A stretch of 64,000 nucleotides of DNA from Bacilli bacterium (lineage in GTDB: Bacteria; Bacillota_I; Bacilli_A; RF39; UBA660): contig JAAWNF010000002.1 of assembly GCA_022798795.1 (NCBI GenBank), positions 1,871 through 65,870 on the forward strand, given 5' to 3'. The notes under the pieces were generated by a model, which was not told where the DNA came from, made no database searches, and saw only the letters and a program-made list of their open reading frames with translations. Every line of letters starts with the position of its first letter. The stretch's first letter is position 1. Positions 56,292 through 62,881 of the stretch are shown piece by piece. A program made the position numbers and the translations under genes.

Positions 56292-57302
56292 TCAATCTAC
56301 CATCTTGCTTTCTTCTACATATTCTTTGATTTCTTTTAATTTATGCTCTAAAATTTTTGTGTCAATTAATTTCACTTGATATTCAGACACTAATGTTGGT
56401 GACATGCTTCTATTCATAGAATATTTTACAACTTCTTTATTTCGATTGGTACATAAAATAATGCCAACGGAAGGATTTTCATGCTCTTTTTTCACTTGCC
56501 TATCCAAAGCTTCTAAATAGAAATCCATTTTTGAAATGTATTCAGGTGCAAAAGCTCCAATTTTTAGTTCAAAAGCGACTAAACAAGATAAATCACGGTT
56601 ATAAAACAATAAATCGATATAAAAATCCTCTCCGCCTACTTGTATTCGATATTCTTCTCCTATAAAAGTAAAAGATTTTCCTATTTCCAAAATAAATTTT
56701 TTAAAATTTACCATGATTGCTTTTCTGAAATCTTTTTCTGAGTGTTCTAAAGGCAAATTTAAAAATTCAAAACTGTAGATGTCCAAAAATCTTGAATTTG
56801 GGATTTCTGTTTCATTGATAAGTAGCTTTTGACTAAATGGTGCGTTCTTAGAAATCATATAGCGTTCATAATACCCACTCCTAATCTGACGAGACAATTC
56901 TCTTGCTGAATATTGTTCTTTTATGGAAAGTGCTATATAGAATTTTTTGGCCTCTATCGTTTTCACTTTTGATAATATTTCAACATGATTAGACCAATTA
57001 ATTTGTCTCAACAGTGTCGAGACAATTTCAGGAAACTCACAATATGTTTCATAAAATTGTTTCATTCGATAAATTCCTGCACGGTTAAAGCCCTTTAATG
57101 TAGGATATTTATTTTTTATATAGGCAGCCAGATTTTCAACGGTCTTACTCCCCCAATTATCCTGTTTAATTTTTTCAGTTACATATTTTCCAATATCCCA
57201 ATATAGAAAAATCATCTCTTCATTCACTTTTCTATAAGCATTATGTCTTCTTTCTTCTATCATATTTATAATTTCTTGAAACCCAGTGATATCTTCTACC
57301 AT
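56292..57302 (-). CDS. YhcG-family PD-(D/E)xK nuclease (DUF1016)
   Basis: Strong AAAGGAGTGA SD before MVEDITGF. The N-terminal DUF1016 region and a C-terminal PDDEXK-like segment (EDFYIDLLFYNRDLSCLVAFELK) are present. The table ORF has a spurious N-extension. Confidence 0.6.
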   Translation of the reverse strand: MVEDITGFQEIINMIEERRHNAYRKVNEEMIFLYWDIGKYVTEKIKQDNWGSKTVENLAAYIKNKYPTLKGFNRAGIYRMKQFYETYCEFPEIVSTLLRQINWSNHVEILSKVKTIEAKKFYIALSIKEQYSARELSRQIRSGYYERYMISKNAPFSQKLLINETEIPNSRFLDIYSFEFLNLPLEHSEKDFRKAIMVNFKKFILEIGKSFTFIGEEYRIQVGGEDFYIDLLFYNRDLSCLVAFELKIGAFAPEYISKMDFYLEALDRQVKKEHENPSVGIILCTNRNKEVVKYSMNRSMSPTLVSEYQVKLIDTKILEHKLKEIKEYVEESKMVD

Positions 57303-57547
57303 TCTCTCACTCCTTTTTGCTATGTAATGTATCAGTATAGGTATCATATATGGGAATTTCTGATATGTCAAAAATAGAATTTTCCAAATTAGGAAAGAAA
57401 TATAAATCAATTTTAAAAATCTGTACAAAGAATTATTATTTTTGCGAAATTTTTATCTCAATTTCATAGATTTACCTCCATTTCTAGAAATTTTATATTG
57501 ACATGCTTTTCTTTTGAATACAAAAAAGAGAATCCAATAAAATTCTC

Positions 57548-57580
57548 TAATTTTGGTATTCTTCAAAAAAATGAAATGCT
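57548..57580 (-). terminator. Intrinsic terminator downstream of the EVE/nuclease gene
   Basis: AGAGAAU...AUUCUCU hairpin plus UUUUUUG on the minus strand. Confidence 0.5.
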
Positions 57581-57629
57581 TCCAATTTCTGACATCATAT
57601 TCCGCAAAATTTATCTCTTTTTCCTTGGT

Positions 57630-59228
57630 TCACGAAATAACCTCTACATCTAGATTTATTTTATACGCTATTGGTTCAAATAACGATTCAAATTCTAATA
57701 AGTTATTTCGATTTATAATATGACATTTAATTTTCTTTTTGATATTATATAAATAATAAATATAGTATTTATCATCCTCTTTCATTTTCTCTAATTCCCG
57801 ATTAGTAAGATAGAAAGCTACTGTTTTAGAACTATTTCCTGAATTTGTTTTTACTTCTATATGAATTTCTTGCCCATGAATATCAAAAGAATCGATATCA
57901 TATCCTGCTGCATCATTTGGATTTTTTGCGACTTGAGAAGCTAATTTTTCTAATCCAGCATCTATTAATTTTTTCTTTTCATAATTTAGGACCGCTGTTT
58001 CTCCCCTATCTCCAATATCTTTTTTATTCCGATTCATTTTTTCATAATCAGTATCTCTAGACCGAATGCGTTCTTTTTTTTCTGCTTCATGTATTCCTAG
58101 ATAATGAAAATTTACAAATTCAAAATCATAATCCAATTCTCCGTTCACAGTATGTTCTATTTCTAGTTCATGCGCGAAAGTATCATATAAAAAAATTACA
58201 AAATAGTAATCAGATATTTCCTTTAACAATGGATGATTTTCTTTCCACTCTTTTAATAATAATTTTTTCTTTTCAGCGGTATTATATTTATATATATCAT
58301 AATGAATCTCTAAAGCATTTAAGAATTTGTCCACATCTTCTTCTTTAAAAATTCCTAAATAACTATCTGGATAATAAGTAGTTAGTATTTTGCTTCTTAC
58401 AGTAGGAGCAAAAGAAGAGTTTGCGATTTCTTCATAACTATGGTTATTGCCATTAATAATTAAAGAAATTAGTTCCTGTTTTAGATTTGAAAAAGCCTCT
58501 TCTATGGTCACTCCATAAGGTTTGTTCCAGTCATAGTGCTGTGTTTTTTTATCATACCAAAATCCAAACTTTGTAACATTGGCCCCTCTTGCTTCTCCTA
58601 ATTTTTGAAGCTTTCGTTCTAATATATAACAAAAGCTATTTCTTCCTGTCTCACTTGTTTCTGCTTTTCCCATAACATAATCATCATAATCCATATTTTT
58701 AATAAATGGAATTGTAAATTTTTTGATAAACTCTTCTCTTACCTTTAAATCAGTTTCTATTCTTATCAAAAACTCATTTGGATTATTTTTTTCTAAATAT
58801 TCTTTTATTTTTTTATTTAATTGAACTTCTTTTTTCCGTTTTGGATGTAACATCATTTCATATAGTTTTTTTCCTGCTTTTTCTTCTAATCGGTGTGTAG
58901 AACGAAATTGGTTGATATATTTTTTACACTCATCATAAGTAATAAATGGCTCATTACATTCAAATTTTATGAATTGGACATCAACAGAATTTTTTTGGTG
59001 ACAATATTCTTCTGGTTTTCCATAATAAATATATGGATTTGTCATGACTTCACCCGTTGCATAAATACCCGCAGTTTCTAAACTTCTCTCTTTTCCAATA
59101 TAAAAAAATACAATATCTCTTGGTTTCATTTCTTTGGTAGCAAGTACTGTTTCTATATGTCCTTCCTTTTTTACTTCTTCTAGCATATTCCATATTTCTA
59201 GGTTTATCAGCGATAAAAAATAATTCAT
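57630..59228 (-). CDS. EVE-domain protein fused to a C-terminal PD-(D/E)xK nuclease (DUF3883). A candidate modification-dependent (type IV) restriction enzyme.
   Basis: The N-terminus MNYFLSL...RDIVFFYIGKE...AGIYATGEV matches the EVE/PUA-like fold. The C-terminus GDRGE...GYDIDSF...IEVKT matches DUF3883 with D...E-x-K. Confidence 0.55.
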   Translation of the reverse strand: MNYFLSLINLEIWNMLEEVKKEGHIETVLATKEMKPRDIVFFYIGKERSLETAGIYATGEVMTNPYIYYGKPEEYCHQKNSVDVQFIKFECNEPFITYDECKKYINQFRSTHRLEEKAGKKLYEMMLHPKRKKEVQLNKKIKEYLEKNNPNEFLIRIETDLKVREEFIKKFTIPFIKNMDYDDYVMGKAETSETGRNSFCYILERKLQKLGEARGANVTKFGFWYDKKTQHYDWNKPYGVTIEEAFSNLKQELISLIINGNNHSYEEIANSSFAPTVRSKILTTYYPDSYLGIFKEEDVDKFLNALEIHYDIYKYNTAEKKKLLLKEWKENHPLLKEISDYYFVIFLYDTFAHELEIEHTVNGELDYDFEFVNFHYLGIHEAEKKERIRSRDTDYEKMNRNKKDIGDRGETAVLNYEKKKLIDAGLEKLASQVAKNPNDAAGYDIDSFDIHGQEIHIEVKTNSGNSSKTVAFYLTNRELEKMKEDDKYYIYYLYNIKKKIKCHIINRNNLLEFESLFEPIAYKINLDVEVIS

Positions 59229-59471
59229 AGTATCCCTCACTCTTTACTACATTATAACATACTTATAAAGAAAAACTACCAAATGGTAGTATTAATTATT
59301 TTGTATCGATTTTAAATATAATGATTTATAATAAATATTTGTTTTCAATAATTCCTCATTCTTTCCATTTTTACTTCACACTCCAATATGACTTTTTTTC
59401 TTATTATTGTATCATAAGAAATTATTTTTTGATATCGTTTCTTTTTGTTTTATATATCAAAAAAGCACTAC

Positions 59472-59729
59472 TTAATGAGTACTTTTTACGATATGAGCTG
59501 TAATAATTGTATAGCTATGGAAATGGATTGTAATTCTTATGTTATCTATTTCACAGTACCAATTTTTCCCTTGTTTATAAATATAACTTTTATTATTTTT
59601 AATCATTTGCTTGCAATAACAAACTGCATCTTCTTTTAGATTTAGATTTTTTTCTATTCTCAGTTTCCCCATTTCTGTTGTATGAAGTTTTTCAATATTT
59701 TGCAATAATATATTCTTATCATTTTTCAT
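59472..59729 (-). CDS. DUF3781-like small protein
   Basis: 85-aa ORF with GKNWY. Confidence 0.4.
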   Translation of the reverse strand: MKNDKNILLQNIEKLHTTEMGKLRIEKNLNLKEDAVCYCKQMIKNNKSYIYKQGKNWYCEIDNIRITIHFHSYTIITAHIVKSTH

Positions 59730-60471
59730 GGTTTATCAATTTTTCAAAAGAGTTGGCATTTAATATTGTATTTGATACAAATTTTCCTTTATAAAAATTA
59801 GCCCAATTTTGAAAGACACATGGAACTTCTTTTGCTCTTTCTAAAGTGTCTATTTTTACAAAATGGATAGGAACATGGTTTTCTTTTGAATACTCTGTTA
59901 ATTCTTTTATTTCATATTCTACATAGGGACATCCTGGACTATAGTAAATTGTGAACATATCCTCTTCTATTTTCATTTGTTTTGCTGAAGCGTTAAATTT
60001 TGGCGTTTCTTCGTTATTAAAGGAGAGCGCTAATAATTCATAATCCTCTATTTCATCTACTACTTGAAAACCATAGTGAAGATAAAACTTTTTTTCTCCA
60101 ATAAATGGTTTTTTCTTTTTTGAAGTTAAAGTACAGATACCACTCATTCCTTTTTCTTTGGAATCTTCAATTGCATATTCTAATAATTCTTTTGCAATTC
60201 CTTTTCCTTTAAAACTTCCTGCCACCCATAGGCAATAGATATATTGATACTTTTTCCCACTGATTGGTACCCATGCTGTTTCAATGGGTTCATATTCAAT
60301 AAATGTTTTTCCTCTGGCATTTAATTTCCTAAATACATGACCATCTTTTAATTTGCTTTTTATCCATTCTTTTTTGCTATCTACACCATTTTGATGCTTT
60401 TTATCTCCTATTGCACAACATAAATGTTCGCTATCGATATTTTCTAGTGTTAAATTGATATATTCATTCAT
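59719..60471 (-). CDS. GNAT N-acetyltransferase with a C-terminal YoaP-like domain
   Basis: N-terminal EHLCCAI YoaP signature and a GNAT core. Confidence 0.6.
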   Translation of the reverse strand: MNEYINLTLENIDSEHLCCAIGDKKHQNGVDSKKEWIKSKLKDGHVFRKLNARGKTFIEYEPIETAWVPISGKKYQYIYCLWVAGSFKGKGIAKELLEYAIEDSKEKGMSGICTLTSKKKKPFIGEKKFYLHYGFQVVDEIEDYELLALSFNNEETPKFNASAKQMKIEEDMFTIYYSPGCPYVEYEIKELTEYSKENHVPIHFVKIDTLERAKEVPCVFQNWANFYKGKFVSNTILNANSFEKLINHEK

Positions 60472-61115
60472 TTTATTTCCGCCTTTATTTTCCTAATTGG
60501 ATGTCTAATAACTGTTCTTAATTTATTTGGTGCACATTTTCTTGGGTCGCTTAAATATATTTCATGATGAAATCTTTTCTCTGTGATATCTAATTCATAA
60601 CCTTGTTCTATCATCAATTGATGCATCAATTCTAATGTTTTGGGTTCTTCATCATAGGAACCAATATGCATACACTGAACACAAGTTCCCTCTTCATAAG
60701 TAAAAAATTCCACTTTACTATAGTCTTGTTTCTTTTTCTTTGTTGCTTCTTTGATAGCCCAGTCAAAATCTTCTTTTGTTACAAAGTCTGGCAATCGTAT
60801 CATGGAAAGGAAATGAAATGTTTCTTTTTTCTGATAATCTATAGTGTTACTTCCCTCTTGCCACCAAAGTCCTTCTAATGGAGGCACAACATAGTTGAAA
60901 AAGCCTTTTATTTGATGGGCTCCTTTGTAGCTCATTTTAATGGTAAAGGCAATTCCATATAATAGTCCAATCGACTTTTTATAGTCTCCATTTTCTTCAT
61001 TTGGATTCCCTTTTCCTTTTACTATAATGTAATTCATTTTTGGGATTTCTATAATACTTGGGGCATTTTTTGGCATATAAAATTCTTTATATTCTTTTTT
61101 ATAATCAAAAGCCAT
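60468..61115 (-). CDS. GyrI-like small-molecule binding domain protein
   Basis: 215 aa with the GyrI-like fold pattern (GLWWQEG). Confidence 0.6.
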   Translation of the reverse strand: MAFDYKKEYKEFYMPKNAPSIIEIPKMNYIIVKGKGNPNEENGDYKKSIGLLYGIAFTIKMSYKGAHQIKGFFNYVVPPLEGLWWQEGSNTIDYQKKETFHFLSMIRLPDFVTKEDFDWAIKEATKKKKQDYSKVEFFTYEEGTCVQCMHIGSYDEEPKTLELMHQLMIEQGYELDITEKRFHHEIYLSDPRKCAPNKLRTVIRHPIRKIKAEIK

Positions 61116-61181
61116 AGTATCTTCCTTTCTGTTTTTCTAACAATTATTATACTTAGTTAAATATGACAACTGATTGTCATA

Positions 61182-62075
61182 TTAAGAATATTGTTCTAGG
61201 CTTTTTCTTAATCGTTCTATGATTTCTTTTTTTACTTCTTTTGGTTCTAGTACTTTTATATGTTCTCCAAAGGAAAGAATATATCCATAAATCCAATCAT
61301 TGTATGGAAATTCTACAGATACTAAGAAATCACCATTTTCTTTCTTTTGAATAGCTGTTTCCTCAAATTCGTCATATACTCTATATGCTAAAGTTTTATC
61401 AATTTGTAAAATCAATGTTATCATTTTGGGCGGAGCATCATGCAATTCGATTTTCATATCTATGGTCCTATCGAATGTTTCTTCTAATATCATCAATTCT
61501 TTTATTCTCATAATTTTAAAGAATCGGTAATCATTTTTATCGACATCAAAACCACATAAATACCAGGAGTTATATTTAAAGCAAAGCTTTATGGGTTCTA
61601 CTTTTCTTTTGGTACAAGTTCCATAAGAGCTAAAATAAGAGAAAGTAATTACAGATTTATAGATAATCGCTTTTTTTATCATTTCAAAGCTTTCCTGATG
61701 AGTTTTAGAATTACTCCAGATAGAAAAGTCTACATCAAACCATTCTTCTTCTGTTTTGGTAAATAGATGCTTCATTTTTTCATAGGTATCGTTATTCATG
61801 ACGTGTAGCTTATTCATACCCTGTAAGGAAAATAGAATTTGGTTCTGTTCTTCTTCTGTTAATAAAGCTTTATCAAATTTATAGTTTTCTAATAGATGGA
61901 TGCCCCCATTTTTTCCTTTGCTCATATAAATTGGAATATGAAATTCGCTTAACACTTCAATATCTCTATAAATTGTTCTAGTAGATACTTCAAAATATTC
62001 TGATAATTCTTTGGCAGTTATGGTATTATTAGAAAGTAGTAAATATAATATTCCAAATAAACGATTATTTTTCAT
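61182..62075 (-). CDS. HTH-WYL (YafY-family) transcriptional regulator
   Basis: N-terminal HTH (TAKELSEYFEVSTRTIYRDIEVL) and a WYL-like middle domain. Confidence 0.75.
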   Translation of the reverse strand: MKNNRLFGILYLLLSNNTITAKELSEYFEVSTRTIYRDIEVLSEFHIPIYMSKGKNGGIHLLENYKFDKALLTEEEQNQILFSLQGMNKLHVMNNDTYEKMKHLFTKTEEEWFDVDFSIWSNSKTHQESFEMIKKAIIYKSVITFSYFSSYGTCTKRKVEPIKLCFKYNSWYLCGFDVDKNDYRFFKIMRIKELMILEETFDRTIDMKIELHDAPPKMITLILQIDKTLAYRVYDEFEETAIQKKENGDFLVSVEFPYNDWIYGYILSFGEHIKVLEPKEVKKEIIERLRKSLEQYS

Positions 62076-62117
62076 GCTATCACCATATTCATTATATCAT
62101 CAAATGTTAAATTTCTT

Positions 62118-62150
62118 CTAGTCAGTAAAAAAGCAGATACTTTTTCTATA
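62118..62150 (-). terminator. Intrinsic terminator
   Basis: AGCAGAU...AUCUGCU hairpin plus UUUUUU on the minus strand. Confidence 0.5.
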
Positions 62151-62172
62151 TCTGCTTCTATTAAAAATCAAT

Positions 62173-62544
62173 TTATAATTGTTTTCCTATTTTTTTTAAA
62201 TATCTTTTTTCTGCATCACAAGCTTTTTGTTCACTTTCTTCAGTATGCCATTCATAGGTTCTACCTAAATAAGAATAAACTTCATAAGCATGTGTATATT
62301 CGTGAATGTTAACACATAAAGATTTCACATCATAAATAATTGGAATAACCATTCTAATATCTATTAAAGTTCCATTTTCTCCTATCATTGGAAATACTCC
62401 CCATTCAAAATCTTCAACTGATAGTGGTAATCTTTTGATTTTTCCTTTCATAAAGGTAAAAAACTCTTGGTTTTTAATTCCTTCTTCTTCTAAAACGGCA
62501 TTTAATTCTTTTTGCCAATCTTTTATATTTGTTTTGTCTAGCAT
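62173..62544 (-). CDS. Hypothetical small protein with an HExxH-like motif (IHEYTHAYE)
   Basis: The probable start MLDKTNIK lies 4 nt downstream of the zinc-ribbon gene stop. Confidence 0.4.
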   Translation of the reverse strand: MLDKTNIKDWQKELNAVLEEEGIKNQEFFTFMKGKIKRLPLSVEDFEWGVFPMIGENGTLIDIRMVIPIIYDVKSLCVNIHEYTHAYEVYSYLGRTYEWHTEESEQKACDAEKRYLKKIGKQL

Positions 62545-62548
62545 ATTC

Positions 62549-62881
62549 CTATTTTTCTGTACAATGACATTCTGGATTGGTGCAAGTACAATTTGGATTA
62601 TATCCACTAGCACATTCCTCTGTACAAGTACATTTCCATCTTTTTAAAGTAGGGAACAGTTTTTCACAGTATTTTTTCATTTCTTCATTGGTCATTCCTG
62701 CTTGCTCTCCATATTTTGAACACATAAGAATATATTCTTCCATTGAAACTTTATCTATAAATTCCCCTTTTTCAAAGCAAAATTTACAGTAATCTATATT
62801 GATACTTCCATCTTTATTTCTACCCAATTGTTCCTTTGATTCTATAGGCATTCCGCAACTTTGACATATTTTATACTCCAT
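62549..62881 (-). CDS. Putative zinc-ribbon domain protein with a Cys-rich C-terminal tail
   Basis: N-terminus MEYKICQSCGMPI...DYCKFCF...LKRW. C-terminal CTCTEECASGYNPNCTCTNPECHCTEK. Confidence 0.65.
   Translation of the reverse strand: MEYKICQSCGMPIESKEQLGRNKDGSINIDYCKFCFEKGEFIDKVSMEEYILMCSKYGEQAGMTNEEMKKYCEKLFPTLKRWKCTCTEECASGYNPNCTCTNPECHCTEK

Follow-up and report, generated by a model that had tools for sequence, protein, structure and literature searches.

PD-T4-1 of Escherichia coli UMB0934 (RRM93940.1) is a single 400-amino-acid DUF3883 gene that was recovered in a functional selection against phage T4; HHpred placed DUF3883 at residues 271-360 only and left the first ~260 amino acids without a domain (Vassallo et al. 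2022, PMC9519451). The protein, here EcPD-T4-1, is dimeric and restricts T4 and Bas21 (10.1101/2025.07.10.664194), the latter being listed among the modified-G phages (PMC12191111). Proteins that join an EVE domain to a PD-(D/E)XK nuclease have been described as a predicted type IV class (PMC7641849), and YenY4I, which combines an EVE-like domain, DUF3427 and DUF3883, preferentially cuts 5-methylcytosine (5mC) and 5-hydroxymethylcytosine (5hmC) DNA in Mn2+ (PMC6765204). Here we describe a locus at positions 56292-59240 of a 64,000-nucleotide stretch of contig JAAWNF010000002.1 from a Bacilli bacterium; the whole stretch that was analysed is called the window. As a first-pass annotation of the letters alone had noted, the locus holds two nuclease-type genes of an anti-phage kind. 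Both are intact open reading frames (ORFs) on the minus strand. Gene A is an EVE-tagged variant of the known PD-T4-1 that resembles the known type IV enzymes with a PUA-type reader and a DUF3883 nuclease, and gene B is a YhcG/DUF1016 gene. Each is a stand-alone nuclease gene, and the spot that they occupy is variable; the genome is gut-type and low in guanine-cytosine (GC) content. Gene A is composed as follows.

57630..59228, minus strand: gene A, encoding a 532-amino-acid EVE-X-NOV_C nuclease that belongs to the PD-T4-1 family and carries EVE in addition; stop codon TGA at 57630-57632
58845..59228, minus strand: EVE-like (PUA-superfamily) domain, amino acids 1-128, from Pfam matches in relatives, an AlphaFold2 (AF2) model and Foldseek
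58104..58811, minus strand: helical domain X, approximately amino acids 140-375, from coverage by the PD-T4-1 hidden Markov model (HMM) and hhalign; putative DNA reader or specificity domain
57633..58046, minus strand: NOV_C/DUF3883 PD-(D/E)xK nuclease, approximately amino acids 395-532, from Pfam, with catalytic residues E410, D444, E458 and K460

The PADLOC profile of PD-T4-1 (PDLC04021) matches gene A with E=1.8e-62, and the match covers amino acids 140-533 of the 536-amino-acid ORF as listed and positions 9-380 of the 383 in the profile. WP_000889012.1, a protein from a Salmonella IncI plasmid that itself scores E=4.6e-205 on this HMM, aligns with amino acids 161-529 of gene A at 27% identity (E=4e-32). 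With 400 amino acids it is like the validated RRM93940.1, to which it was compared by length only. Because of the near end-to-end profile match and the homology to the 400-amino-acid Salmonella protein, the middle region of gene A can be equated with the N-terminal domain of PD-T4-1. These ~250 amino acids, which had been left unassigned in the first pass, also occur in an McrB-type GTPase and in HNH nucleases. Gene A therefore shares X and NOV_C (about amino acids 140-532) with PD-T4-1 over their full length, has the same catalytic motif and is likewise a stand-alone gene. It differs by an additional N-terminal EVE domain of ~130 amino acids, which is absent from the canonical 400-amino-acid two-domain proteins, by a sequence identity of no more than the 27% given above, and by its host, a low-GC metagenome-assembled genome (MAG) labelled Tenericutes and not an enterobacterium. 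The core being a full-length homologue of a validated anti-T4 gene, the defence role that had been proposed for the locus is well founded, and we are highly confident that gene A is a defence nuclease of the PD-T4-1 family.

The nuclease domain is recognised by Pfam (NOV_C/DUF3883) at amino acids 413-509 of the 536-amino-acid ORF, with 55.7 bits where the cut-off is 22.1 (E=5e-15). The gene is a full-length intact ORF, and E410 (in GDRGE), D444 (in GYDI) and E458/K460 (in IEVK) are invariant in an alignment of 21 core sequences (A2). The restriction-endonuclease-like D...ExK motif noted earlier is thus real and reads E...D...ExK. When the NOV_C model was compared to known structures with Foldseek, archaeal Hjc resolvases were retrieved (2wcw, probability 0.99, and 2eo0), followed more weakly by DpnI, EcoRV and SwaI. 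Elsewhere the NOV_C module is joined to MrcB_N, the reader of E. coli McrB (P0045), and to BpuJI_N (P0050). The type IIS enzyme BpuJI and the MrcB_N-NOV_C fusions have in common with gene A that a NOV_C nuclease is mounted on a DNA-recognition module, but their recognition domains are other ones, and BpuJI reads unmodified sequence.

At the N-terminus, the isolated segment of gene A reaches 23.3 bits on the Pfam EVE profile (cut-off 23), and all 14 homologous N-termini (alignment A1, made from the N-termini of 14 relatives) match it, the best with E=3.7e-9. The AF2 model of amino acids 1-133 has a pLDDT of 88.7, and its closest structures in the PDB by Foldseek are nearly all EVE proteins (TMq 0.6-0.67, E down to 9e-6). 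The matching entries include PH1033 (1wmm/2hd9), 2gbs, 2ar1, 2p5d, 1zce and 2eve, and by protein name they comprise PH1033, Rpa0253, MJECL36, Atu2648, PSPTO5229, human THYN1 and VcaM4I. Among them are THYN1 bound to 5mC DNA (5j3e) and the EVE-HNH enzyme VcaM4I (6yex). YTH and ASCH domains rank next, after the EVE proteins. A search of PDB chain sequences with the EVE profile gave no meaningful match. As judged from the profile matches and the predicted model, the EVE assignment is sound at the level of fold and family. The fusion of an EVE reader to a DUF3883 PD-(D/E)xK nuclease had been put forward from the sequence, and this architecture is correct by Pfam and fold evidence; gene A fits the EVE-PD(D/E)XK class in having a modified-base reader and a nuclease with an intact active site.

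The exact EVE-X-NOV_C layout was found only in P0001 (96% identity) and P0002 (70%). Many relatives in Firmicutes, whose core identity is 50-58%, have EVE together with an insert domain of ~130 amino acids, or this insert without EVE, or N-terminal modules of other kinds, so that EVE, EVE plus insert domain, a 'NYWTI' type and a Zn-ribbon type are swapped among the relatives. Between gene A and P0002 the identity is 42% in EVE, 80% in X and 86% in NOV_C; the EVE domain diverges much faster than the core, in agreement with the fast evolution of defence-associated EVE domains (PMC7641849). The insert domain stands ahead of X in most Firmicutes relatives (P0003-P0036; for instance amino acids 1-130 of P0013 and 135-260 of P0003), is missing from gene A, has no Pfam match and shows the motifs KKDWxxILxNE, RYWNIPF and FTWKLRxEL in this order. 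At least three further types of N-terminal module are present in P0003-P0036, namely the 'NYWTI' type, the Zn-ribbon type and those of P0025/P0028.

Domain X belongs to no Pfam family. Its AF2 model has a pLDDT mostly above 85, and the model of the entire core (X plus NOV_C) has a pLDDT of 86. Amino acids 137-352 of gene A match the N-terminus of a 670-amino-acid AAA_5 (McrB-type) protein that is encoded on an Acaryochloris plasmid beside McrC and a type I HsdR; in hhalign this match has a probability of 99.5 and E=3e-23 over 180 columns. When 1.84 billion representative proteins were searched with the X profile, 2411 clusters (counted at 50% identity) were found, 1677 of them at E<=1e-10. The best 146 representatives comprise 95 with the canonical arrangement of X and nuclease, 23 that are extended at the N-terminus and 13 with long C-termini. 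Pfam identified NOV_C in 17 of the 39 non-canonical members, HNH in eight (and HNH_2 in one more), DUF3427 in one and AAA_5 in one. The architectures found are X-HNH, DUF3427-X-HNH, with DUF3427 preceding X in P0130, and X-AAA_5. Such combinatorial fusions are the pattern of swappable specificity modules of type IV enzymes, and from this pattern we infer that X may bind DNA or a modified base. Searches of PDB chain sequences with the X and core profiles gave no meaningful match, and a structural search of the PDB with X gave no significant one.

The McrBC pair with the X-type N-terminus (Acaryochloris pMB05, WP_235112662.1 and McrC) has a homologous X in the DNA-specificity position of McrB. 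It differs from gene A, which has neither an AAA_5 GTPase nor a McrC partner and would cleave with its own fused nuclease. On pMB05 (NZ_CP071722.1, 69053-79679) this McrBC pair is flanked by the type I HsdR gene, with an SprT-like protease gene alongside, and by a gene for a 1135-amino-acid RecB-like nuclease. The region is a compact plasmid-borne defence cluster.

We favour, with moderate confidence, the reading that cleavage by gene A is modification-dependent and type IV-like, with two reader modules. This proposal is based on the reader-type fusions (EVE, DUF3427, MrcB_N) and on the presence of X in the specificity position of McrB. In the invading DNA, a modified base would be flipped out and bound by the EVE domain; the likeliest such base is a modified cytosine, for example 5mC, 5hmC or a derivative. 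X would add DNA binding or a second specificity. The protein would be a homodimer via its nuclease domains, as was measured for EcPD-T4-1, and binding by the readers would tether the nuclease dimer and lead to a nick or cut in the foreign DNA. Host DNA without the mark would be spared. Neither a nucleoside triphosphate nor a methyltransferase would be needed. None of the genes neighbouring gene A is a methyltransferase, and a crude motif test of the ORFs of at least 150 amino acids in the 64-kb window found no xPPY and no PCQ plus ENV motif.

The enzymes closest to such a mechanism are those of the YenY4I group (Lutz et al. 2019, PMC6765204). Like gene A they consist of three parts, with a DUF3883 PD-(D/E)xK nuclease at the C-terminus preceded by a PUA-superfamily reader and another domain of reader type, and they have neither an ATPase nor a methyltransferase; the modified-cytosine-dependent cleavage of YenY4I itself is weak. 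In gene A, however, the middle domain is X and gives no DUF3427 match in Pfam. In the EVE-HNH enzymes VcaM4I and TspA15I (PMC7897488) the EVE domain senses modified cytosine, and the EVE model of gene A matches the VcaM4I structure, but these enzymes use an HNH nuclease instead of PD-(D/E)xK and are without X. A wider possibility, which we hold tentatively and with less confidence than the mechanism above, is that X represents an unrecognised family of readers of foreign or modified DNA that is interchangeable on NOV_C, HNH and McrB-type GTPases. The whole PD-T4-1 family might then be type IV-like, and gene A would be a dual-reader member (EVE and X) in which EVE diversifies in an arms race with phage DNA modifications. 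If true, this would contradict the original statement that such DNases do not resemble type IV systems.

Several observations weigh against modification-dependent cleavage by gene A as a defence enzyme. In vitro, purified EcPD-T4-1 cleaved single-stranded DNA (ssDNA) and nicked plasmid, and it did not cut double-stranded DNA (dsDNA), including T4 genomic DNA; the PD-T4-1 core by itself may hence not be a modified-dsDNA endonuclease. On the whole gene A protein, the Pfam EVE profile (PF01878) stays below its cut-off (19.9 bits against 23, E=8e-4). W13, Y56 and Y66 are invariant in the EVE alignment, and the EVE domains of known structure are too dissimilar in sequence for pocket residues to be mapped. 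EVE domains are also able to bind RNA, and neither structure nor sequence comparison of X gave a match that would indicate a ligand. At the level of the locus, genes A and B have the GC content of the genome, with no deviation, and the neighbours in the window are ordinary (ABC transporters, a two-component system, GNAT, a GyrI-like protein and a WYL regulator).

The in vitro results, from which the authors of that study suggest ssDNA recognition, lend themselves to a different explanation. Gene A might be triggered by DNA structure, that is by long ssDNA or by replication or recombination intermediates, and not by modification; EVE and X would then tune binding, or EVE would read a modified RNA or nucleotide. 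It is in line with this that the fold of the nuclease is nearest to Holliday-junction resolvases and that EVE/PUA domains are classically RNA binders. On the other hand, reader-type N-termini (EVE, DUF3427, MrcB_N) are swapped on the same nuclease and X stands in the specificity-domain position of a McrB homologue, both of which are typical of modification-dependent systems, and the two phages targeted by EcPD-T4-1 both have hypermodified DNA. We regard a structural trigger as unlikely, though worth serious consideration.

Another explanation retains the sensing of modified bases and gives X a different origin, as an inactivated glycosylase fold of the EndoIII/HhH-GPD type; this would place gene A among the END nucleases, whose sensor of hypermodified bases is iEndoIII. 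Over its helical part, the top Foldseek matches of X in the PDB are MutY glycosylases (8dvy, E=0.019, probability 0.69). According to the END paper, fusions of this sensor with a PD-DExK nuclease and with McrB-like GTPases occur, the partners being those of X, and END-Mag restricts Bas21, as does EcPD-T4-1. However, the MutY matches have a TMq of ~0.21 and an rmsd of ~13 Å, hhalign of the X profile with E. coli EndoIII gave a probability of 0.1, and the profile search of PDB sequences returned no glycosylase. An EndoIII-type origin of X is in our view improbable.

Modification-dependent cleavage is the reading that we carry forward. PD-T4-1 is a validated defence gene, and the reader fusions, the shared domain X and the hypermodified-phage targets give a testable hypothesis for its trigger, namely that the PD-T4-1 family tells foreign DNA by base modification. 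If so, a new reader domain could be added to the toolkit of modification-dependent nucleases. Most of the value of the locus would lie in this hint on how PD-T4-1 recognises phage and in X, which may be a new reader module. Taken by itself, the window is of modest significance.

The genomic contexts of gene A relatives were surveyed using 123 neighbouring genes, two per side, at 34 loci. Restriction-modification (RM) genes, OLD/ABC ATPases, integrases and conjugation genes are enriched there, and the commonest families are N6_Mtase, Eco57I, AAA_15, HsdM_N, AAA_21, OLD-TOPRIM, integrase and transposase; PADLOC identified mad2 and type I methyltransferases among the neighbours. Close relatives are located in a conjugative element (VirD4, TrbL, VirB4-like) and in a spot with a phage replisome organiser on one side and a type I RM system on the other, and they also occur as single insertions in a GroEL/PreP and a SecA/MetRS interval. 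Full-length X-NOV_C genes are present on two IMG/VR contigs, and a search of deposited phage genomes gave no match. The family is patchy across phyla, its contexts are not conserved, and no conserved partner gene was found beside the relatives of gene A.

The nearest genomes are MAGs labelled 'uncultured Tenericutes bacterium', with L006 and L007 among them. The gene A of L007 (10400-15426), 94% identical, is recombinant at its 3' end, and a 215-amino-acid ORF without a family match overlaps its stop codon in place of YhcG. A NUMOD4-HNH endonuclease and ORFs that by eye are exonuclease-like and leucine-rich-repeat-like follow. The junction looks like a mobile or phage-like insertion.

The ends of gene A, the signals around it and gene B are described by the following features.

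59251..59259, minus strand: putative gene A promoter, an extended -10 element (TGtTATAAT) read from the sequence
57522..57548, minus strand: intrinsic-terminator-like hairpin (AGAGAAT...ATTCTCT followed by T6) 3' of gene A, from RNA folding and sequence
57343..57371, minus strand: sigma-70-like promoter of gene B, TTGACA-17-TATGAT (11/12 matches), read from the sequence
56292..57302, minus strand: gene B, encoding a 336-amino-acid YhcG/DUF1016 PD-(D/E)xK protein, PADLOC candidate PDC-S02

As listed, gene A runs over 57630..59240 with a GTG start and 536 amino acids. The ATG at 59228-59226 is the more likely start than the GTG at 59240, since it is preceded by the ribosome binding site GAGGGA at 59238-59233 and yields 532 amino acids, the length of the 96%-identical P0001. 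At the other end, the 58 codons past the TGA (57456-57629), read in the frame of gene A, contain neither TAA nor TAG, which is unusual at 28% GC. This open frame is probably due to chance, because TGA serves regularly as a stop codon here, the homologues stop at this one and the terminator hairpin (-11.2 kcal/mol, z=-3.4) lies within the stretch. Genetic code 4, an idea that came from the 'Tenericutes' label of the closest MAGs, was rejected: TGA terminates 13 of 48 long ORFs, and the standard bacterial code (table 11) therefore applies. An NCBIfam scan gave nothing useful.

Gene B matches Pfam YhcG_C (E=1e-50) and DUF1016_N (E=2e-38) and the PADLOC profile PDC-S02 (E=4e-120). Its true start is the ATG at 57302 and not the listed TTG at 57428, in view of a 336-amino-acid gene call in the related contig L001, an AAAGGAG ribosome binding site and the 11/12 sigma-70-like promoter. 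The PDC entries of PADLOC are candidates that were proposed from their embedding in RM, BREX and DISARM loci. Gene B corresponds to PDC-S02 in both Pfam domains and in the profile but is not embedded in an RM, BREX or DISARM system. By its sequence it is an ordinary member of a candidate defence family. In the literature we found no functional study of the YhcG/DUF1016 family.

It had been suggested in the first pass that the YhcG neighbour supports a defence context for gene A. That argument does not hold, as YhcG is not a conserved partner, is separately transcribed and is itself a candidate. We read genes A and B as separate transcription units, given the terminator-like hairpin after gene A, the own promoter and ribosome binding site before gene B and the extended -10 element before gene A. 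Were the two genes nevertheless one two-component defence system, this would explain why, in the window as in L001-L003 and L006, they lie on the same strand with ~330 bp between them. YhcG adjoins gene A solely in the same species, except for one archaeal locus (L020) that carries both genes within 2 kb, and of 38 loci of other species, 37 have no YhcG next to their gene A relative; in L007, the 94%-identical gene A is followed by the unrelated phage-like genes described above. The promoter before YhcG is strong, and PD-T4-1 functions as a single gene. A joint system is very improbable, and synteny and the transcription signals led us to reject YhcG as a partner of gene A. Gene B is an independent candidate defence nuclease, not a subunit of gene A.

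On one flank of the locus are the ABC transporters and the two-component system, on the other DUF3781, GNAT/YoaP, the GyrI-like gene and the WYL regulator. The latter group (59472-62881), beside gene A, is a cluster of the small-molecule-response type, with DUF3781, a GNAT/YoaP acetyltransferase, a GyrI-like protein and an HTH-WYL-WCX regulator, and it also holds a Zn-ribbon protein and a 146-amino-acid protein without a family match. We saw nothing that links the cluster to gene A. No tRNA that could mark an integration site is present within the window. The locus had been called a defence islet, and this stands in the weak sense of two adjoining defence-type genes in a variable spot, whereas an island border or a GC deviation is not supported. 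That gene A is a housekeeping gene of DNA repair or recombination, or a decaying remnant, would suit the Hjc-like fold, the ordinary neighbours and the native GC in the window, but is hardly credible for an intact full-length ORF with invariant catalytic residues that is homologous to a validated defence gene and distributed patchily across phyla, in varied contexts that include conjugative elements, prophage-like regions and RM loci. The housekeeping synteny in all relatives, named at the outset as what would speak against a defence gene, is likewise not seen; the contexts vary, with many RM and mobile-element genes among them.

The remaining features lie in the AT-rich DNA upstream of gene A.

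59292..59386, minus strand: deletion scar, a fusion of the ~10 initial codons of LysR (TTG at 59386) to the final 75 nucleotides of an ABC-exporter gene
59275..59290, minus strand: terminator-like hairpin with T run, belonging to the upstream, largely deleted ABC-exporter gene

The stretch 59240-59470 has a GC content of 0.199, within the lowest 0.4% of 231-bp windows. This AT-rich flank had been taken as support for an accessory context; the AT-richness is real, but it is that of intergenic DNA and of a 4.4-kb deletion scar. In L006 (5050-9473) and L007 (4322-8744), DUF3781 and gene A are separated by a 4.4-kb block with a LysR regulator, a 573/605-amino-acid kinase-like protein and a 577-amino-acid ABC exporter, and this block is deleted in the window. 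What is left is the start of LysR, the last 75 nucleotides of the exporter and the exporter's terminator hairpin. The junction, at 59356-59366, lies within a microhomology of imperfect 11-bp repeats (GGAAAGAATGA / GGAAAGCATGA). An island border was accordingly rejected in favour of a deletion scar with microhomology. The scar leaves a 7-codon remnant ORF (MERMRNY*). Four independent Logan assemblies (L001-L004) all end at 59290, at the palindromic hairpin, beside the site of the 4.4-kb strain difference.

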